From a virus (Duplodnaviria > Heunggongvirae > Uroviricota > Caudoviricetes), in the IMG/VR virus record IMGVR_UViG_638341085_000008, positions 1 through 13,231 of that record: a stretch of DNA of 13,231 nucleotides. The stretch is one strand, 5' to 3'. Every line of letters begins with the position of its first letter. Position 1 is the first letter of the stretch. The translations under genes and the position numbers were made by a program. The notes under the pieces were generated by a model that saw nothing but the letters and a program-made list of their open reading frames with translations, ran no database searches and was not told where the DNA came from. Of the stretch, positions 636-13,231 are shown piece after piece.

Positions 636-3101
636 GTGGCCAGTGAATTTTCAGTCGGCGTCATTATTGGCGGCATTGTCGGGAGCAGCTTCCGCTCAGC
701 CGTCAGTGGCACCCGACGCGCCCTTGATTCCCTTGGTGATACCTCCCGCCGTCTGCAGGAACGCCAGAATGCCTTAACCCGGGCAACAGAACGTTATGGT
801 CAACTGGGTTCTTCCCGGATGCAGCATCTCAACAGCGAGTTGCTGCGGGTAAGCCGCACCATGGAGCAAATTGAACGTCAGCAGCGCCGTCTGTCAGCAG
901 TATCAGCCACCGGTGATGCGTTGAAGGCTAACCGCCTGGCGCTCTATGGTCAGGGTGCAGAAACCTATGCTATTGGCAGAACGCTGGGCGCACCGGTCAT
1001 GGCCTCGGTTAAACAATATGCCTCGTTTGAATCACAGTTGCGGGATATCAGTGTCACAGGAGACCTGGATGCAAAACAGGAACGTGCAATTGGCCTGGCT
1101 ATCAGACAGGCCTCGCTGAAGGTTAACCAACTGCAGGAGTCTCTGTTAGGGGGAGTCGGACAATTAGTTGCTGATGGTATGGCCCCCGAACGGGCAGCAA
1201 CGTTTGCAGAGATGCTTGGAAAGACCGCTACAGCAACCAAAGCCGATATGACCGACCTTGCCAAAATGACTTATGCCTTCAGCGATGCACTCAGAATCAC
1301 TGATGCGAAAGAACTTGAACAGGCGTTTGGCATTGCGGCAACAGGAGCCAAACTTGGGTCATTTGAGCTGAAGGATATGGCAAAAGCATTACCCGGTATG
1401 GCGAAAGCCTTCGCTGCTCGTGGTATTTATGGAAAAGATGCGATTACCCAGATTGTTGCCAGTCTGGAGGTCGGTAAAGGTAGTGGCTCTGCAGAGGAAG
1501 CGGTCACCAATATGTCCAACTGGCTGGCAGCAATGGGCCGCGGAGATACCATCCAGAAATATGCTAAAGCCGGGGTGGATTACCAGGGGTCAATGCAGAA
1601 TTACGTCGCTCAGGGTTTTTCGCAGTACGAAGCTTCACTGATGATTGCCAACCGTTTTATCGACAGTAAAGGCAAAGCGTTTTTGCAGCAATGGAAAGCT
1701 GCAGGAGCAAGAGGCGATCAGGAAGGTCAGCAGAAACTCATGGAGTCATTTGGTCTGGCTGAGGTCTTTACCGATATTCAGACTGTCAACCATTTACTGT
1801 CAATGCGACAGGGCTGGGATAAATACCTTTCCAGTAAGCAGGAAATGAATGCTCCGGCTGCAATGTCTACCCTGGATAAGGATGCTGCAAAGCAGAATGA
1901 TACGCTTGAAGGTCGCTGGCGCAGAATGCAGATCGGCTTTAATGATTCTGCTATCAGCATCGGGCAATCCTTGCGTCCGGCTTTGCTCCAGTTGGGTGAA
2001 ACATTTATTCCTTTAATGGACAGCGTCGGCAAATGGATAGCGGCAAATCCGCAGCTCGTCAGCAGCACCATAAAGGTTGTGGGCGCATTACTCGCTTTCA
2101 GGATGGCCACTATCGGTCTCAAGTTTGGGCTGAATCTCCTTATTTCCCCCTTTGTAAGCGTCTGGAAAAATGCTGTTTTACTTCGGGCCAACTGGCTTCG
2201 TCTGATGCTCGCACTGGGGGAAGGCGGTAAACTCCGCTGGCTGGTGACAGGCTTTGGTGCCGTCGCCAGAGGAACCAGAACACTGGGGGGGGTGCTCTCA
2301 GGGGGGCTGGTTCGCGGAATTATGAGCGCCGGGCGTGCCGTTCTCTGGATTGGCCGGGCGCTGCTGATGAATCCCATCGGTCTCGTTATCACCGCCGTCG
2401 CGGCAGCAGCTTACCTTATCTACCGCAACTGGGGCGCTGTCAGTAGCTGGTTTAAACAGCGCTGGGCTGACATTCAGGAAGCCTTTAACGGCGGCATCGC
2501 GGGAATTGGTAAACTGCTGGTTAACTGGTCTCCGGCAGGTCTGCTTTATAAAGCCTTTGCGGCTGCGCTGAAATATCTCGGCGTTGATTTGCCGGCGAAA
2601 TTCACCGACTTCGGTGGTCATCTTATTGACGGGCTGATAAATGGCATCAGAAACAAATGGGCGTCACTGAAAACCAGCATAACCGGAATGGGTGACAGCA
2701 TCAGTGACTGGTTCAGCGAAAAGCTGGGCATCCATTCACCGAGTCGCGTGTTTATAGGCTTTGGTGACAATATCGCGCAGGGTGCCGCCATTGGCCTGCA
2801 ACGGACCACTCCGCTTGCTGCACTGGCCGGGCAGCGCCTGGCCGCTGAAATGACACCGGATGTTCCCCGTATCCCGTCGCCGGAAATCATGGCTGCCGGA
2901 TATTCAGGCCGTGGCGCAACTGCAACCGGCGGTGGAGCGTCTGGCGGTATCCAGGTCAGCTTTAATCCTCATTTTTTCCTCAATGGTAAGGAAACCGCAG
3001 CGCCTGCCGGGCTGGCTGGTGCCCTGAATATGAGCCTGCATGAGCTGGAAAAAATGCTGGAGCGTCTGCTGGCTCAGAAACAACGTAAGGAGTACAGCTG
3101 A
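636..3101 (+). CDS. tail tape measure protein (P2 gpT / Mu gp42-like)
   Basis: 821-aa ORF, GTG start with GAGGAT 7 nt upstream; position directly after the chaperone pair; Ala/Gly/Leu-rich with hydrophobic glycine-zipper-like stretches; stop overlaps next start (TGATG). Confidence 0.85.
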   Translation: MASEFSVGVIIGGIVGSSFRSAVSGTRRALDSLGDTSRRLQERQNALTRATERYGQLGSSRMQHLNSELLRVSRTMEQIERQQRRLSAVSATGDALKANRLALYGQGAETYAIGRTLGAPVMASVKQYASFESQLRDISVTGDLDAKQERAIGLAIRQASLKVNQLQESLLGGVGQLVADGMAPERAATFAEMLGKTATATKADMTDLAKMTYAFSDALRITDAKELEQAFGIAATGAKLGSFELKDMAKALPGMAKAFAARGIYGKDAITQIVASLEVGKGSGSAEEAVTNMSNWLAAMGRGDTIQKYAKAGVDYQGSMQNYVAQGFSQYEASLMIANRFIDSKGKAFLQQWKAAGARGDQEGQQKLMESFGLAEVFTDIQTVNHLLSMRQGWDKYLSSKQEMNAPAAMSTLDKDAAKQNDTLEGRWRRMQIGFNDSAISIGQSLRPALLQLGETFIPLMDSVGKWIAANPQLVSSTIKVVGALLAFRMATIGLKFGLNLLISPFVSVWKNAVLLRANWLRLMLALGEGGKLRWLVTGFGAVARGTRTLGGVLSGGLVRGIMSAGRAVLWIGRALLMNPIGLVITAVAAAAYLIYRNWGAVSSWFKQRWADIQEAFNGGIAGIGKLLVNWSPAGLLYKAFAAALKYLGVDLPAKFTDFGGHLIDGLINGIRNKWASLKTSITGMGDSISDWFSEKLGIHSPSRVFIGFGDNIAQGAAIGLQRTTPLAALAGQRLAAEMTPDVPRIPSPEIMAAGYSGRGATATGGGASGGIQVSFNPHFFLNGKETAAPAGLAGALNMSLHELEKMLERLLAQKQRKEYS

Positions 3102-5929: not shown

Positions 5930-6649
5930 ATGCGGTTATCAAGATCCTTATGTAAAGTAGTTGGCGATGTCATTGCTAACTCAGGCTCTCATGCAGCTTT
6001 AGATACGTTATTTCTTACTTCGGGAGCACCAGGAAACCCTCCGGCAGGATCTCATAGTACAAAATGGAAAGACTGGTTATTTCTTGCAGGGCAAGATCCA
6101 GATACAGATAGTCTGGCAGTTCTGGGCGGAGTAATTGAGGAGTTTATGGATTTACCTCCAAAAGAAGGTACTCCCGAATATGCAGAATGGAAGGAAAAAC
6201 GAGACAGAATTGAAGCTGTGTTACAAGAGAATGGACTTAGATATTATCGTTTTGGTCGAGTGTTGCCTGAAGGCCACATCCCGTCACACAATATGGATTA
6301 CCCAGAGACCATAATTACTTATCAACAGCCAGTAATGCCAGAAAAAGTTGAGAACTTACTGGAAAGGCTGGTCAAAGGCTTACAGCGAGCAATGCATCCA
6401 CTTACTCATAGGCGAAAAGGAAGCCAGTCATTATCTTTTAGCAATGAATATGACGTGCAAGACCTTCTCCATGCATTGCTCAGACCATGGGTTCAGGACA
6501 TCCGCCCAGAAGAGTTTACTCCAAGTTACGCTGGTTCAAGTACTCGAATGGATTTTTTGTTACCTGCGCATAAATTAGTACTGGAAACCAAAATTGTTCG
6601 TGATCGTTCTCATGCAAAGAAAATCGGCGATGAACTTATTATCGATTAG
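5930..6649 (+). CDS. IS2-truncated cargo gene, 5' part (239 codons); restriction-endonuclease-like D-x10-E-x-K signature, function unknown
   Basis: ATG 5930 with GGGGA 5 nt upstream; low-GC sequence; motif D208 (6551-6553), E219 (6584-6586), K221 (6590-6592) in RMDFLL...LVLETKIV; reading frame ends in the TAG that is the first 3 nt of IS2. Confidence 0.7.
   Translation: MRLSRSLCKVVGDVIANSGSHAALDTLFLTSGAPGNPPAGSHSTKWKDWLFLAGQDPDTDSLAVLGGVIEEFMDLPPKEGTPEYAEWKEKRDRIEAVLQENGLRYYRFGRVLPEGHIPSHNMDYPETIITYQQPVMPEKVENLLERLVKGLQRAMHPLTHRRKGSQSLSFSNEYDVQDLLHALLRPWVQDIRPEEFTPSYAGSSTRMDFLLPAHKLVLETKIVRDRSHAKKIGDELIID
6642..6646. repeat. IS2 target site duplication, left copy (TCGAT)
   Basis: TCGAT directly flanks the IS2 left end; identical to 7978-7982. 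Confidence 0.9.
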
Positions 6650-6737
6650 ACTGGCCCCCTGAATCTCCAGACAACCAGTATCACTTAAATAAGTGATAGT
6701 CTTAATACTAGTTTTTAGACTAGTCATTGGAGAACAG

Positions 6738-7103
6738 ATGATTGATGTCTTAGGGCCGGAGAAACGCAGACGGCGTACCACACAGGAAAAGATCGCAATT
6801 GTTCAGCAGAGCTTTGAACCGGGGATGACGGTCTCCCTCGTTGCCCGGCAACATGGTGTAGCAGCCAGCCAGTTATTTCTCTGGCGTAAGCAATACCAGG
6901 AAGGAAGTCTTACTGCTGTCGCCGCCGGAGAACAGGTTGTTCCTGCCTCTGAACTTGCTGCCGCCATGAAGCAGATTAAAGAACTCCAGCGCCTGCTCGG
7001 CAAGAAAACGATGGAAAATGAACTCCTCAAAGAAGCCGTTGAATATGGACGGGCAAAAAAGTGGATAGCGCACGCGCCCTTATTGCCCGGGGATGGGGAG
7101 TAA
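6738..7103 (+). CDS. insC: IS2 OrfA (InsC) transposase regulatory/DNA-binding protein
   Basis: Sequence recognised as IS2 InsC ([24 protein letters not shown]...); ATG 6738 is the likely true start, the longer ORF from 6693 is an upstream extension. Confidence 0.95.
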
Positions 7104-7966
7104 GCTTAGTCAGCCGTTGTCTCCGGGTGTCGCGTGCGCAGTTGCACGTCATTCTCAGACGAACCGATGACTGGATGGATGGCCGCCGCAGTCGTCACAC
7201 TGATGATACGGATGTGCTTCTCCGTATACACCATGTTATCGGAGAGCTGCCCACGTATGGTTATCGTCGGGTATGGGCGCTGCTTCGCAGACAGGCAGAA
7301 CTTGATGGTATGCCTGCGATCAATGCCAAACGTGTTTACCGGATCATGCGCCAGAATGCGCTGTTGCTTGAGCGAAAACCTGCTGTACCGCCATCGAAAC
7401 GGGCACATACAGGCAGAGTGGCCGTGAAAGAAAGCAATCAGCGATGGTGCTCTGACGGGTTCGAGTTCTGCTGTGATAACGGAGAGAGACTGCGTGTCAC
7501 GTTCGCGCTGGACTGCTGTGATCGTGAGGCACTGCACTGGGCGGTGACTACCGGCGGCTTCAACAGTGAAACAGTACAGGACGTCATGCTGGGAGCGGTG
7601 GAACGCCGCTTCGGCAACGATCTTCCGTCGTCTCCAGTGGAGTGGCTGACGGATAATGGTTCATGCTACCGGGCTAATGAAACACGCCAGTTCGCCCGGA
7701 TGTTGGGACTTGAACCGAAGAACACGGCGGTGCGGAGTCCGGAGAGTAACGGAATAGCAGAGAGCTTCGTGAAAACGATAAAGCGTGACTACATCAGTAT
7801 CATGCCCAAACCAGACGGGTTAACGGCAGCAAAGAACCTTGCAGAGGCGTTCGAGCATTATAACGAATGGCATCCGCATAGTGCGCTGGGTTATCGCTCG
7901 CCACGGGAATATCTGCGGCAGCGGGCTTGTAATGGGTTAAGTGATAACAGATGTCTGGAAATATAG
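7061..7966 (+). CDS. insD: IS2 OrfB (InsD) transposase catalytic domain; full transposase made as InsCD by -1 frameshift
   Basis: Sequence recognised as IS2 InsD; sits in the -1 frame relative to insC; slippery A-AAA-AAG at 7055-7061. Confidence 0.95.
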
Positions 7967-7977
7967 GGGCAAATCCA

Positions 7978-7982
7978 TCGAT
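7978..7982. repeat. IS2 target site duplication, right copy (TCGAT)
   Basis: Identical to 6642-6646, directly flanks the IS2 right end. Confidence 0.9.
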
Positions 7983-8141
7983 ATAGAGCATTATCGTCGG
8001 CACTCTGATTGCAAAAATCTCTGGTGTGTCATCTACGATCCGAACCAGCTTATTACTAATTCTGAGGGGCTGAAATCTGATCTTGAGGGGAAGAGAGTTT
8101 CTAAAGACGGAGAACTTATCGTCAAGGTTTTCGTAATTTAA
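7983..8141 (+). pseudogene. 3' fragment (53 codons) of the IS2-disrupted cargo gene
   Basis: After removing IS2 plus one TCGAT copy this segment is in frame with 5930-6646, giving a 292-aa ORF ending TAA 8139-8141. Confidence 0.75.
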
Positions 8142-9654: not shown

Positions 9655-10225
9655 GGCGCTACGACTACCGCCACCGCTTGAGGGTGATATCAGTCTCAAA
9701 ACGCTGGGAAGACTGGCCGAACGGCTGGATAACATCGACCTGAGCGTACTGATGGTCTGTCTCGTCGATATCGTCGACAGTTCCGCGCTGCCATGGCTGG
9801 GCGAGCAGTTCTCGTTGTTCGGCGATGGCTGGGAACTGGCGGAATCGGACGATGTACGCCGCATGCTTATCAAATCCGCTATCGAGCTACACCGCTATAA
9901 AGGAACGCCGTGGTCAATCCGGGAAATTATCCGCCGTTTTGGCTTTGGCGAAGTAGAGCTGATAGAAGGTACGGGGCAGATCGGCTACGACGGTAAACAC
10001 AGTTACAACGGACTTTTCGTCCATGGCGATGCACAAGCCTGGGCAGTCTATCGGGTCATCCTTCAACAGCCCATCACTAATGATCAGGCAGCGCTGTTAC
10101 GTCAGACGCTCGCTGCCTTTGCTCCGGCTCGCTGCCATCTGGCAAGCCTGGAATATCAGTCTGTCGCCATTCGATACAACAGTACTACCCGTTATGACGG
10201 TAGTTACAACCACGGGAGCAGTTAA
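9647..10225 (+). CDS. gpI-like baseplate protein
   Basis: 192-aa ORF in the conserved W-J-I position, immediately before the tail fibre gene. Confidence 0.75.
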   Translation: MAEALRLPPPLEGDISLKTLGRLAERLDNIDLSVLMVCLVDIVDSSALPWLGEQFSLFGDGWELAESDDVRRMLIKSAIELHRYKGTPWSIREIIRRFGFGEVELIEGTGQIGYDGKHSYNGLFVHGDAQAWAVYRVILQQPITNDQAALLRQTLAAFAPARCHLASLEYQSVAIRYNSTTRYDGSYNHGSS

Positions 10226-10227
10226 TT

Positions 10228-11172
10228 ATGGCAAATCTACCTGAAACCCCACAGTGGGAAGACGGCATCTACCAGATTGAGGTCTCTGACCCCGTTCTGG
10301 GCGGGCCTGACGGAATTTCTAACCGTCAGGGTAAACAACTGGCCAGCCGCACGCTGTACCTGAAGCAACAGGTTGAAAAAGGCGGGGCTGACCTTGCGAA
10401 ACACATCGCGGCAGCAGACCCGCATGCCCAGTATGCACCGAAAGCCAGTCCGGCATTCACCGGCACACCAACAGCACCTACACCTGCAAATGGCGATAAC
10501 AGCAAAAAGCTGGCGACGACGGAGTTTGTGGCCAAAGCACTTGCGGCGCTTGCAGGCAGCGCCCCTGAGACACTGGATACGCTTAAAGAGCTGGCTGACG
10601 CTCTCGGTAATGATCCAAACTTTGCGACTACGGTACTGAACAAGCTGGCGGAAAAGCTGGCTAAAGACCAGAACGGCGCAGATATTCCTGATCCTGCGCT
10701 GTTTGTCAAAAACCTTGGTTTGGGAGAAGGTACTCCAGCTATTGGCGTTCCGTTCTTCTGGCCCTCCGCGGCAATGCCAAATACTGTAATCGACAGCTGG
10801 TCCAGTATGGTGTTTTTGAAGTTCAACGGGGCGAAATTTTCTGCCACTGATTACCCTGTGCTGGCGAAAGTGTTTCCTTCGCTGGTATTACCTGAAGCCC
10901 GCGGTGATTTCATTCGTATCTGGGATGACGGGCGAGGTGTAGACGGTGGTCGCGAATTATTAAGCTGGCAGGCAGCTACAAACTTTTCTCAGTTTGCCGG
11001 GAATATAGGCGATGGTGCGGGCCACGCAATTAATTTTCATGATGGTATCGCCGGAAATCAGCCAGGATTTTCACGATTTAATTTCACCAGTAACTCTGTG
11101 GGTGATGGTGTGAATTTTGTTGCCGTCAGACCGCGAAATATTGCATTTAACTTTCTGGTGAGGGCTAAATGA
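10228..11172 (+). CDS. tail fibre protein: constant N-terminal part plus currently expressed variable C-terminal part (Sv)
   Basis: 314-aa ORF; GGGAG 10214-10218; N-terminus with QWEDGIYQIE motif typical of P2 H / Mu S fibres; a recombination site lies inside the gene at 10703-10728. Confidence 0.85.
   Translation: MANLPETPQWEDGIYQIEVSDPVLGGPDGISNRQGKQLASRTLYLKQQVEKGGADLAKHIAAADPHAQYAPKASPAFTGTPTAPTPANGDNSKKLATTEFVAKALAALAGSAPETLDTLKELADALGNDPNFATTVLNKLAEKLAKDQNGADIPDPALFVKNLGLGEGTPAIGVPFFWPSAAMPNTVIDSWSSMVFLKFNGAKFSATDYPVLAKVFPSLVLPEARGDFIRIWDDGRGVDGGRELLSWQAATNFSQFAGNIGDGAGHAINFHDGIAGNQPGFSRFNFTSNSVGDGVNFVAVRPRNIAFNFLVRAK
10703..10728. other. left recombination (crossover) site of the invertible segment, hix/gix-like
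   Basis: TTGTCAAAAACC-TT-GGTTTGGGAGAA matches the 26-bp TTnTCnnAAACC-nn-GGTTTnnGAnAA pattern; 10715-10729 is an exact inverted copy of 12542-12556. Confidence 0.6.
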
Positions 11173-11765
11173 TGACCCCAATTTTTGATGAAAATGGACT
11201 GGCTACAGTGCCGGGCGATATGCGTTGTTTTTATTATGATGCAGTAACGTATGAATATACGGGCTGGTCTGATGAATATATTAATACTGGTGTAAGTATG
11301 CCCGCCTGTTCCACTGGTATTGACCCGGGCGAAAACATTCCGGGAAAAGTGGCAGTATTTACGGGTAAGGGATGGAGCCATGAAGAAGACCATCGCAATG
11401 AGACTGTTTACTCAACAGAAAATGGTGCAACTGTTACAGTGGATTATATCGGTGCCATCAAAGACGGTTATGTCACGCTTTCACCGTTAACGCCATACGA
11501 TAAATGGGATGGTGAGAAATGGGTGACAGATTCTGAGGCACAACACGGTGCCGCAGTAGAAGCGGCAGAAGCACAGCGCCAGTCACTTATTGATGCAGCA
11601 ATGGCTTCCATTAGTCTGATTCAGCTGAAATTACGGGCCGGGCGGAAGCTGATGCAGGCAGAGACCTCCCGACTTAACACTGTGCTGGATTACATTGACG
11701 CGGTGACGGCAACAGATACCAGCACCGCGCCGGATGTCATCTGGCCTGAACTGCCGGAGGAGTAG
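11169..11765 (+). CDS. tail fibre assembly protein (Tfa; P2 gpG / Mu U-like), currently expressed orientation
   Basis: 198-aa ORF overlapping the fibre stop; C-terminal motif LDYIDAV...DTSTAPDVIWP shared with the inverted paralogue. Confidence 0.8.
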   Translation: MMTPIFDENGLATVPGDMRCFYYDAVTYEYTGWSDEYINTGVSMPACSTGIDPGENIPGKVAVFTGKGWSHEEDHRNETVYSTENGATVTVDYIGAIKDGYVTLSPLTPYDKWDGEKWVTDSEAQHGAAVEAAEAQRQSLIDAAMASISLIQLKLRAGRKLMQAETSRLNTVLDYIDAVTATDTSTAPDVIWPELPEE

Positions 11766-12177
11766 GCCATTCAATATCTGGCGCACTGGAAGTATCGACC
11801 AGCTCCAGTGCGTCCAGATAATCCAGCCACAAATTATATTGCGCCAGTTCCTCACCTTTCAGACGACCAATAGCCGCTTTACCAGCCCATTGTTTACTGT
11901 TCATATAATCGTTGGCCTGATTAATCAATTGCTGCTTTTTCAGTTCGGCTGCAGCAATCTGTTCCTCATGTGTTGGTGGTGGAATTTCAGACCATGCAGG
12001 AAAACCATTTTCTCCAGCGATACGGATTTTTCCTTTCGGCGGTAATCCGGAAAACTCAATATACACTTGCTCATCAACTTCAACAGCATCATCTGGCCAT
12101 GAGTCAGCTTGCGTGTAATCCTCTTTCATCTCCAAGGGATAGAAAGAGTTTGTAGTCGCGGAATATATGTAATTCAT
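11737..12177 (-). CDS. alternative tail fibre assembly protein (Tfa'), inverted orientation
   Basis: 146-aa ORF on the minus strand with GGAG upstream of ATG 12177; C-terminus LDYLDALELVDTSSAPDIEWP resembles Tfa. Confidence 0.75.
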   Translation of the reverse strand: MNYIYSATTNSFYPLEMKEDYTQADSWPDDAVEVDEQVYIEFSGLPPKGKIRIAGENGFPAWSEIPPPTHEEQIAAAELKKQQLINQANDYMNSKQWAGKAAIGRLKGEELAQYNLWLDYLDALELVDTSSAPDIEWPTPPAVQAR

Positions 12178-12203
12178 TTTTCACTCCATAAAGTTAAAAG
12201 AAA

Positions 12204-12554
12204 TTAACACCCTAATGCGAAAAATGAAGCACCGATACCGGGTACGCCTGCTCTGGAAATAAATTTCACCGGGTCCTGGTTATAACCGGCACAAGCTATA
12301 TAGCCAACATTTGCACTGCCGGGAGTGTAATCCTGAGTTGCAAATACCCGCAGACATCTATTCGGAAATGCAATCGGAAAATAGGTTACTGTGTCCTGAG
12401 ACGTCAGCGAAACATCAATTGGCCCCCATTGAATAATTAAACCGGATGGCAATTTTTGATATCCAGTACCTGAAACAGAAAGCGTGAAGCTACCCATATC
12501 AGGTATCTGATTCGTCCCTGTCCCCACATTCCTTTTTGCCGCTTCTCCCAAACC
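12204..12554 (-). CDS. alternative tail fibre C-terminal segment (Sv'), promoterless and start-less until inversion
   Basis: Minus-strand frame is open from the right crossover site to stop at 12204-12206; after inversion it fuses in frame to the fibre constant part (...[16 protein letters not shown]...); the ORF-track start is a TTG inside the crossover site. Confidence 0.65.
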
Positions 12555-12568
12555 AACGTTTTCGTCTT
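12543..12568. other. right recombination (crossover) site of the invertible segment
   Basis: TTCTCCCAAACC-AA-CGTTTTCGTCTT; inner half identical as inverted repeat to the left site, outer half degenerate; 55 nt upstream of the invertase start. Confidence 0.6.
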
Positions 12569-12622
12569 AACTCCCACCTATACCAGCTATGTATTTTTAA
12601 CAAAACAAAGAGGATATTTTTC

Positions 12623-13195
12623 ATGCAAATTGGCTACATTCGTGTGTCAACAAATGACCAGAATACAGATTTACAACGAAACGCACTGAACTGCGCAGGA
12701 TGTGAACTGATTTTTGAGGATAAAATCAGCGGAACAAAGTCAGCCCGACCGGGATTGAAAAAGCTGCTCAGAACGTTATCAGAAGGAGATACGCTCGTTG
12801 TCTGGAAGCTGGATAGGCTGGGCAGAAGCATGAAACACCTTATCACTCTTATTGAGGAACTGCGGGGAAAAGGGGGTAATTTCCGTAGTCTTACAGACAG
12901 CATTGATACGTCAACACCCATGGGACGTTTCTTTTTTCACGTCATGGGGGCTTTAGCGGAAATGGAGCGCGAATTAATAGTTGAACGAACACTGGCCGGA
13001 CTTGAGGCAGCACGTGCACAGGGGCGTATTGGCGGACGCCGTCCGAAACTGACAAAAGAGCAACATGAACAAATAGCAAGGCTGATCAAAAATGGCTATA
13101 GCAGGAAACAGTTGGCAATTATTTACGATATCGGTATATCGACGATTTATCGTTATCACCCTGTAGAGGAACTCCAAACTCAAGCTAAGTTGTAA
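12623..13195 (+). CDS. serine DNA invertase, Gin/Pin/Cin/Hin family
   Basis: 190-aa ORF from ATG 12623 (GAGGAT RBS 12609-12614); N-terminal resolvase motif GYIRVSTNDQ with catalytic Ser, C-terminal helix-turn-helix; the 12536 ORF-track start runs through the crossover site and has no RBS. Confidence 0.9.
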   Translation: MQIGYIRVSTNDQNTDLQRNALNCAGCELIFEDKISGTKSARPGLKKLLRTLSEGDTLVVWKLDRLGRSMKHLITLIEELRGKGGNFRSLTDSIDTSTPMGRFFFHVMGALAEMERELIVERTLAGLEAARAQGRIGGRRPKLTKEQHEQIARLIKNGYSRKQLAIIYDIGISTIYRYHPVEELQTQAKL

Positions 13196-13231
13196 TTCTT
13201 TTTCAGATATTGAAATGCCGCAGCGATGTAA

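Follow-up and report, generated by a model that had tools for sequence, protein, structure and literature searches.

Gene content of the locus

The sequence analyzed here (the window) is the whole 13,231-nucleotide stretch of the virus record IMGVR_UViG_638341085_000008, and its backbone is a Mu-like prophage located between ppiD and ybaV. It carries a tail-fibre gene, a second fibre tip on the opposite strand, an assembly chaperone gene for each tip, and a serine DNA invertase gene, with the following features:

10228–10728, plus strand: constant N-terminal part of the fibre, residues 1–167 ending in ...KNLGLGE, the prefix common to both orientations
10703–10728, minus strand: left 26-bp crossover site (pix-like), central TT/AA at 10715–10716, inside the fibre coding sequence
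10716–12555: invertible segment, 1840 bp between the crossover centres, bounded by the centres of the two sites
10729–11172, plus strand: tip A, currently expressed, 147 aa, tail-collar type (PHROG 523)
11169–11765, plus strand: tfa, assembly chaperone for tip A (Caudo_TAP, 1.4e-26; PHROG 105, 3.7e-82)
11737–12177, minus strand: tfa', assembly chaperone for tip B, homologue of K-12 YfdK (Caudo_TAP, 2.3e-38)
12204–12541, minus strand: tip B, silent, 112 aa, startless, with a Gp53-like_C domain (Pfam PF21882, 4.8e-19)
12543–12568, plus strand: right 26-bp crossover site, central AA at 12555–12556
12623–13195, plus strand: serine DNA invertase of the Pin/Gin/Cin class, 190 aa (Pfam and PHROG)
12641–12712, plus strand: putative Fis-dependent recombinational enhancer, inside the invertase gene, the span corresponding to P1 cin nucleotides 19–90

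The fibre ORF (10228–11172) encodes a protein that matched PHROG 3100 'tail fiber protein' as a whole (4e-119). A preliminary description of this DNA had placed the left site within the fibre gene at the codons for NLGLGE, and the site was indeed found in this ORF at ...KNLGLGE. The same description held that a minus-strand frame at the right site has no start of its own, but would fuse in frame to the constant region after inversion. This frame (12204–12563) opens directly after a TAA stop codon, its only possible start is the TTG coding for the Leu of GLGE, and it is annotated by NCBI as a 5′-truncated pseudogene. When the segment was flipped in silico at the central dinucleotide, the constant part and the minus-strand frame were joined into a 279-aa in-frame fibre, as had been anticipated. 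The tip lengths originally given, 148 and 115 aa, required correction, as 147 and 112 aa, respectively, follow the part common to both fibres.

The variable domains had not been recognised in that description, but both are recognisable and common, one being of the Gp53-like_C/yfdL type and the other of the tail-collar type found in O157:H7; matches in Pfam, PHROG, PDB and at the DNA level rule out that the tips are unknown domains. Tip A matched PHROG 523 'tail collar fiber protein' (3e-42, residues 157–314), and gave weak matches to Pfam Collar (E=0.01, below the cut-off) and to the T4 gp37 tip structure 2xgf (E=0.011). Neither Pfam nor NCBIfam had an above-threshold match to the fibre or to tip A, and a single-sequence AlphaFold2 model of this tip was uninformative (mean pLDDT, 33). 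At the sequence level, tip A shares 97% identity with the fibre tips of O157:H7 and approximately 90% with mEp213/mEp043, and it is present in 655 of 5426 E. coli genomes. Tip B, which is unrelated to tip A, matched PDB 4mtm (putative tail fibre protein) and the C-termini of R-type pyocin fibres, and its DNA is 97% identical to yfdL of K-12 CPS-53.

The proposal that each tip has its own assembly gene was confirmed by two Caudo_TAP genes (Pfam), with tfa located after tip A and tfa' after tip B. The tfa start overlaps the fibre stop codon, while tip B and tfa' are separated by a 26-nt gap with GGAG preceding the tfa' ATG; the 3′ end of tfa' overlaps tfa by 29 bp. The DNA of tfa' is 97% identical to yfdK of K-12 CPS-53. 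Similarity between Tfa' and Tfa is limited to a 72-aa C-terminal stretch with 38% identity.

Crossover sites, invertase and putative enhancer

A repeat finder detected inverted-repeat arms of 21 nt at 10709–10729 and 12542–12562, which are 95% complementary. The left site, as its reverse complement, reads TTCTCCCAAACCAAGGTTTTTGACAA and the right site reads TTCTCCCAAACCAACGTTTTCGTCTT; the two 26-mers are identical at 21 of 26 positions and both carry a central AA. The repeat finder and the 26-mer alignment agree with the two inverted 26-bp sites sharing an exact 15-bp core (10715–10729 versus 12542–12556) that had been proposed earlier. Delimiting a segment by its site centres, as was done here, also recovers the annotated boundaries of the Mu G segment. 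Both window sites are almost identical to the pix sites carried by the e14 element of K-12, and the left-site core TTGGTTTGGGAGAAGG is the e14 P-segment repeat quoted in PMC12529663, which we also located in K-12. A 20-nt site pattern (up to 3 mismatches) matched the window at these two sites only, with an expectation of 0 from 200 shuffles, thereby indicating that the arrangement is not due to chance and that there is no third site. A multi-site, shufflon-like system (Min of p15B type) was ruled out, because the window contains only two sites.

The inner half of the right site matches the left site perfectly, whereas its outer half, CGTTTTCGTCTT, is weak. By our own count it agrees with 5 of the 9 defined positions of what we take to be the family consensus for half-sites, and its e14 counterpart with 8 of the same 9. 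The remaining three half-sites of the window are good consensus matches as judged by eye, and the right outer half-site is variable among relatives. In Mu, e14, SCU-105 and the window alike, 80 bp separate the proximal site from the start codon of the invertase; the intergenic sequence itself is unrelated to that of the window in e14 and Mu, whereas SCU-105 has the window-type spacer.

The serine invertase gene noted after the tips is full-length and encodes both Resolvase and HTH_7 domains (Pfam, 1.1e-49 and 1.4e-13, respectively), with a match to PHROG 125 'DNA invertase' (2.6e-96). The amino acid identity of its product is 81% to PinE, 71% to Gin and 74% to Cin. Mutation of the catalytic serine region had been named as a reason to doubt activity, but this region is intact: residues S9, R7, D64, R65 and R68 are invariant relative to PinE, Gin and Cin, and the alignment is gap-free to residue 180. 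On what we take to be the Hin numbering, K46/K47/R50 and Q150/R153/L154 of the invertase are the conserved, aligned equivalents of Hin K47/R48/K51 and Q151/R154/L155. Equivalents of these six Hin residues are specific to Fis/enhancer-dependent invertases and contact Fis and the enhancer (PMC3798978).

In this family, the reaction depends on Fis and on negative supercoiling, and the enhancer consists of two Fis sites about 48 bp apart in the 5′ part of the invertase gene. A search of the invertase gene for such a pair, as had been suggested, identified two motifs resembling the Fis consensus at 12645–12659 (TGTCAACAAATGACC) and 12693–12707 (GCGCAGGATGTGAAC), which are 48 bp apart. These candidate Fis sites correspond to nucleotides 23–37 and 71–85 of the gene, lie within the span annotated as the enhancer in P1 cin, and occur at the same gene positions in pinE, gin and cin. 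From the coordinates, the crossover centre and the centre of the proximal Fis motif are 96.5 bp apart; in hin, the enhancer lies ~100 bp from the nearest site (PMC3798978). Among conserved amino acids, the same codon was retained in 55–67% of cases in codons 7–30 and in 32–43% elsewhere in the gene (Fisher p, 0.009–0.11 per pair), which is only suggestive of an extra constraint on the enhancer. Since the motifs lie in codons for highly conserved residues, their conservation is partly explained by the protein. A promoter scan upstream of the invertase found no convincing sigma-70-like promoter.

The locus is most probably a site-specific inversion switch of the Pin/Gin/Cin class at the right end of a Mu-like E. 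coli prophage. Each structural element of the Gin/Pin/Cin-type architecture put forward in the preliminary description was checked and is present. The analysis shows the sites, the frames, the domains, the enhancer motifs and the conserved geometry. As far as can be judged from sequence, the switch is an ordinary, structurally intact member of the Gin/Cin/Pin family, and every part of it has close catalogued relatives. We infer catalysis by the window invertase, Fis dependence and a consequence for host range. Dimers of the invertase (12623–13195) would bind the two inverted 26-bp sites, and the bound sites, together with Fis on the enhancer in the 5′ end of the invertase gene, would form an invertasome; both sites would be cut at the central AA/TT and the strands rotated, so that the 1840-bp segment would be flipped. 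In the present state, the late operon would give a 314-aa fibre (the constant 167 aa plus the collar-type tip A), followed by Tfa. In the flipped state, the constant part would be fused in frame to the Gp53-like tip B, with Tfa' encoded 26 nt downstream. Particles from the two states would differ in their receptor-binding tips and hence, presumably, in host range.

Orientation of the segment in sequenced genomes

The exact element was found in the window orientation, with tip A expressed, in 8 of 8 instances. Five of these are ETEC genomes with 100% identity, and the others are strain 97.3, a metagenome contig and the phage fragment KM389307.1. A search of 5,426 complete E. coli genomes with an inverted 3-kb query and with both states of the right junction yielded no flipped exact element. 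A 40-nt constant-plus-site pattern had no match among viral contigs and a single match, in the window state, among metagenome contigs. The four closest relatives of the right junction (92–93% identity), which reside in other prophages, are in the tip-A state too.

Documentation of both orientations is confined to a cassette that carries the same two tips, is 91% identical and is driven by a PinE-type invertase. This cassette occurs in opposite orientations in the sister substrains BH100 and BH100N, and the same holds for near-isogenic RIVM isolates, in which its chromosomal coordinates are identical. The sequence changes over precisely at the site, and the genes around and within the segment share protein accessions. 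Read at the level of genome assemblies, these pairs show that inversion occurs in close relatives. Reversible tail-fibre inversions in ST131 prophages are reported to have been confirmed by PCR, and a DNA invertase is carried by a Bcepmuvirus-type ST131 prophage (bioRxiv 10.1101/2022.05.07.487787). Since all eight instances of the exact element are in the window orientation and one of its four half-sites is weak, its own activity is best called putative.

The same observations could mean that the switch is intact but locked, or strongly biased towards tip A, having been inherited from an active ancestor and now inverting very rarely, possibly through degeneration of the right outer half-site or through very low expression of the invertase. 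We consider this unlikely, even though the eight instances with the window constant region and the four right-junction relatives share one orientation, the right outer half-site is weak (5/9) and not conserved among relatives, and the sequence preceding the invertase yielded no promoter-like site. Across the 3-kb query, the five ETEC genomes show 100% identity, and as they are assumed to be clonal, they contribute little independent evidence. Moreover, assemblies report only the majority orientation, and e14 in culture shows an orientation ratio of about 30:70 (PMC12529663); a uniform consensus is therefore expected even if the switch is active. The invertase ORF, the catalytic residues, the enhancer motifs and the 80-bp spacing are all intact, which also speaks against a locked switch. 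Functional sites with one poor half-site exist, as in hixR. Action in trans by another Pin-type invertase of the cell is possible too, PinQ acting on the e14 P segment being an example (PMC12529663).

Another reading concerns the window-type subfamily, which combines an invertase with an STIYRYHP recognition helix and a degenerate right outer half-site, and which would be a one-way or conditional switch and perhaps, as reported for PinQ and e14, also an anti-phage defence; we regard this as quite improbable. Because every close instance is in the tip-A state, inversion in this subfamily may depend on an invertase supplied in trans or on a particular signal. Least probable of all, in our view, is that inversion serves the host, as reported for PinQ and the e14 P segment, in a recombinase-activated defence in which a protein derived from the fibre would keep unrelated phages from adsorbing. 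The crossover cores are the same as those of e14 and the invertase is of the same class, and inversion of e14 produces a chimeric protein, StfE2, that blocks T2 adsorption (PMC12529663). However, the stfE frame of e14 starts outside the segment, whereas the minus-strand frame of the window opens after a stop codon and is startless outside the segment, so that no second chimeric protein is made here. The prophage also has a full annotated set of Mu-like structural and lysis genes. The only insertion sequence in the window lies in an accessory gene, the same gene in which strain 503025 has an extra IS100. A role in virion host range is thus the simpler reading, given the full structural and lysis gene set and the position of the sole insertion sequence.

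If the locus is the host-range switch that we favour, the 'pseudogene' at 12204–12563 and the 'hypothetical protein' annotated for the fibre are two states of one gene, and prediction of host range for the ETEC prophage should consider both tips. Beyond annotation, the finding carries little weight.

Comparison with known inversion systems

Precisely at the site, this tip cassette was found attached to no fewer than four different constant regions, namely Mu-like (the window), P2-like H fibre (strains 1303 and SCU-105), BH100 type and CPS-53. These junctions make the locus a clear illustration of mosaic exchange at crossover sites.

Among the closest known systems is the P segment of e14 with PinE. 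The inner half-sites and the central dinucleotide of both sites are identical (TTCTCCCAAACC AA ...), and the two systems share the order fibre, tfa, tfa', fibre', invertase, the 80-bp spacing from site to gene, and a segment of about 1.8 kb. In contrast, the variable cassette is mostly different, with only the C-terminal region of tfa (87%) and short patches aligning, and e14 has another intergenic sequence and another outer half at its right site. The window backbone is that of a Mu-like prophage, and the stranded tip of the window is startless outside the segment. That the element is e14 itself was ruled out, as only short patches align and the backbone is Mu-like; the element works like e14 P/Pin without being e14.

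With the G segment and Gin of Mu, the locus shares the S-U-U'-S'-invertase layout at the right end of a transposable phage, a crossover within the fibre gene, a proximal site 80 bp before the invertase start, and Fis motifs at the same gene positions. The Mu G segment is larger (about 3 kb), the Mu tips are much larger and unrelated, and the core dinucleotide of the gix sites (TTCCTGTAAACC GA GGTTTTGGATAA) is not that of the window sites. According to the annotation, the early region of the window prophage is divergent from the late region, unlike that of Mu; we take this divergent arrangement to be the BcepMu layout. The C segment of P1 is served by an invertase of the same class (Cin, 74% identity), and the window is 81% identical over the annotated enhancer (cin nucleotides 19–90). 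P1 differs in that cin is located on the opposite side and has cixL at its 3′ end; the P1 segment measures 4.2 kb, and its tips bear no relation to those of the window.

The tfaS-yfdK-yfdL region of K-12 CPS-53 is 97% identical to window positions 11484–12564, a homology that spans tip B, tfa' and the 3′ part of tfa and ends at the crossover site. CPS-53 differs in being a decayed remnant with pseudogenes and no adjacent invertase, in which tip B is attached to a different constant region. The PinE-type cassette of BH100/BH100N and of the RIVM ST131-like isolates carries the same tips and tfa genes (91–96% DNA identity) and the same inner sites. It differs from the window in the constant region and baseplate module, in a right outer half-site that is canonical, and in an invertase that is PinE-like and about 82% identical in amino acid sequence to that of the window.

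Fibre gene and its alternative tips

As read from the sequence, the cassette is a structurally complete Pin-type invertible tail-fibre switch with the following parts.

Features of the fibre cassette (window coordinates)
10228-11172, fibre ORF (314 aa), left site at its NLGLGE codons
10703-10728, left 26-bp crossover site, reverse complement TTCTCCCAAACCAAGGTTTTTGACAA, central AA
11169-11765, plus strand, tfa, assembly chaperone gene for tip A (Caudo_TAP)
11737-12177, minus strand, tfa', assembly chaperone gene for tip B (Caudo_TAP)
12543-12568, right 26-bp crossover site, TTCTCCCAAACCAACGTTTTCGTCTT, central AA
12623-13195, serine invertase gene (Resolvase and HTH_7 domains)
12645-12659, putative Fis motif 1 (gene nt 23-37), consensus match
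12693-12707, putative Fis motif 2 (gene nt 71-85), consensus match

A minus-strand frame across the right site begins directly past a TAA stop, and its sole possible start is a TTG, the Leu codon of GLGE; in RefSeq it is a 5'-truncated "gp53-like" pseudogene. When 10715-12556 was reverse-complemented in silico, this frame fused in frame to the fibre constant region, as the preliminary description had predicted, giving a 279-aa fibre. Residues 1-167 are common to both states and are followed by tip A, the C-terminus encoded in the present orientation, or by tip B, the silent alternative. The existence of two tips was thus upheld, but their lengths were computed as 147 and 112 aa rather than 148 and 115 aa. 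Comparison bore out that the tips are mutually unrelated, and a Caudo_TAP gene was found after each, as had been proposed. The likeness between Tfa and Tfa' is limited to a C-terminal 72-aa stretch. The two genes are convergent, with 3' ends overlapping by 29 bp (11737-11765), and a further inverted repeat (11684-11701 and 11810-11827) is present because they share a C-terminal motif (LDYIDA...TS.APD..WP).

The preliminary description had not recognised the variable domains; both tips match known domains and have catalogued relatives. Tip A matches PHROG 523 ("tail collar fiber protein"), has relatives in O157:H7 (97% identical) and in mEp213 and mEp043 (~90%), and is present in 655 of 5426 complete E. 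coli genomes. Tip B (601 of the 5426) is a Gp53-like_C domain matching PDB 4mtm, a putative tail fibre protein, and R-type pyocin fibre C-terminal domains. Across 11484-12564, which takes in tip B, tfa' and the 3' portion of tfa, the window shares 97% identity with tfaS-yfdK-yfdL of K-12 CPS-53, and this homology ends at the crossover site. In other prophages, too, homology begins or ends exactly at crossover sites, and at least four unrelated constant regions, each ending in ...LGLGE, were found joined to the same tip cassette.

Crossover sites, invertase and putative enhancer

A repeat finder returned a 21-nt inverted repeat (arms 10709-10729 and 12542-12562, 95% complementary), and re-checking the sequence confirmed the site coordinates and the exact 15-bp inverted core described previously. 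The 26-mers are identical at 21 of 26 positions and were the only matches in the window to the 20-nt site pattern with at most 3 mismatches (0 expected, 200 shuffles). Applied to Mu, the method used to locate crossover centres recovered the boundaries that the record gives for the G segment. The e14 pix sites, read in K-12 as TTCTCCCAAACCAAGGTTTTCGAGAG and TTCTCCCAAACCAACGTTTATGAAAA, show that the inner halves (toward the invertible segment) and the central dinucleotide are identical in the window and e14. The right outer half, CGTTTTCGTCTT, agrees with the half-site consensus TTnTCnnAAACC at only 5 of its 9 defined positions; it differs among the closest relatives (CGTTTTCGTTTT in ST69 and PEC240) and is canonical in PinE-type relatives. 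Kirigo et al. (PMC12529663) mapped inversion of the P segment to the repeat that forms the site core.

The invertase shares 81% amino-acid identity with PinE, 74% with Cin and 71% with Gin, ungapped to residue 180. Its catalytic serine region, on which activity had been said to depend, is intact, S9, R7, D64, R65 and R68 being invariant in the alignment with these proteins. Hin K47/R48/K51 and Q151/R154/L155, whose conservation is restricted to Fis/enhancer-dependent invertases (PMC3798978), align with K46/K47/R50 and Q150/R153/L154 of this protein. The search for a paired Fis enhancer, suggested earlier, yielded two putative motifs 48 bp apart within gene nt 19-90, the span annotated as the cin enhancer in the P1 record, and both are conserved in pinE, gin and cin at matching positions. 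Codon identity at conserved amino acids was 55-67% in the enhancer span versus 32-43% elsewhere in the gene, with modest per-pair significance. In the window, as in Mu, e14 and SCU-105, the start of the proximal 26-mer lies 80 bp from the start codon; unrelated spacer sequences occur in e14 and Mu, and that of SCU-105 is of the window type. At this fixed spacing, 96.5 bp separate the crossover centre from the proximal Fis motif, in agreement with the roughly 100 bp reported for hin (PMC3798978).

The spacer between right site and invertase (12569-12622) occurs as two unrelated types, one in the window, ST69, PEC240 and SCU-105, the other in e14, BH100 and 1303, yet the distance from site to start codon stays essentially constant (80 bp; 81 bp for strain 1303). 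The spacer of the window type occurs together with a Hin-like recognition helix (STIYRYHP) and an outer half-site that is degenerate.

Inversion in relatives and orientation of this element

Genome comparisons indicate that close relatives of the cassette do invert. One cassette, which carries both tips and is 91% identical over 2.35 kb, has the window orientation in BH100N and agrees with the in-silico inverted one in the BH100 substrains MG2014 and MG2017; BH100N and BH100 have identical protein accessions for pinE, both tfa genes and the genes on either side. Alignment of the four junctions placed the swap exactly within CCTTGGTTTGGGAGA. Near-isogenic RIVM isolates carry both states at the same chromosomal coordinates. 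More broadly in the family, right-junction queries built for the two states were covered to 80% or more by 93 and 152 genomes, respectively. According to a preprint (bioRxiv 10.1101/2022.05.07.487787), fibre inversions in ST131 prophages are reversible and confirmed by PCR, and a Bcepmuvirus-type prophage of ST131 strains carries a DNA invertase.

The present cassette is probably functional as a Pin-type fibre switch. That it is effectively locked or strongly biased appears improbable. All eight instances of the exact element (five ETEC genomes, strain 97.3, phage fragment KM389307.1 and metagenome contig OLIL01001561.1) were in the tip-A state, as were the four sequences most closely related to the right junction. 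This pattern is weak evidence against activity, because the ETEC genomes show 100% identity across the query and are assumed clonal, because assemblies give only the majority state, and because the e14 P segment is itself ~30% inverted (PMC12529663). A defence role of the PinQ kind is conceivable but unsupported; in contrast to e14, no start for the stranded tip lies beyond the segment.

The prophage and its relation to Mu

Positions 10200-13231 are 100% identical in five ETEC chromosomes (four from India and TW10573), where the element is a ~40-kb prophage between ppiD and ybaV. Its early-type genes encode a Mu-type transposase, MuB-like ATPase, Gam and Mor, and its late-type genes a DUF935 portal, Mu F/G-like head proteins, sheath, tube, tape measure and P2/Mu-type baseplate; the window corresponds to the tail half of this Mu-like transposable prophage (NZ_CP025892.1, 278200-318400). 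ORFs 120-461 (annotated in RefSeq) and 286-543 (unannotated) overlap in different frames just 5' of the tape-measure gene (636-3101), the usual place of a frameshifted tail-assembly chaperone pair. Between the baseplate V-like and W-like genes, an IS2 copy (6647-7977, 1331 bp, 5-bp target duplication TCGAT) interrupts an accessory gene (5930-8141) with a DpnII/MboI-like restriction-endonuclease domain (Pfam PF18742, 4.6e-30). A 291-aa ORF was regained once IS2 and one duplicate were taken out, and strain 503025 additionally carries IS100 in this gene.

The early operon, which comprises the transposase, MuB-like ATPase, Gam and Mor genes, and the late genes are oriented divergently, as in BcepMu-like phages. 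Mu differs in this arrangement, but there, as here, the fibre cassette and invertase lie at the prophage right end. Every component of the switch has near-identical catalogued relatives, and the switch therefore belongs to an already known kind.
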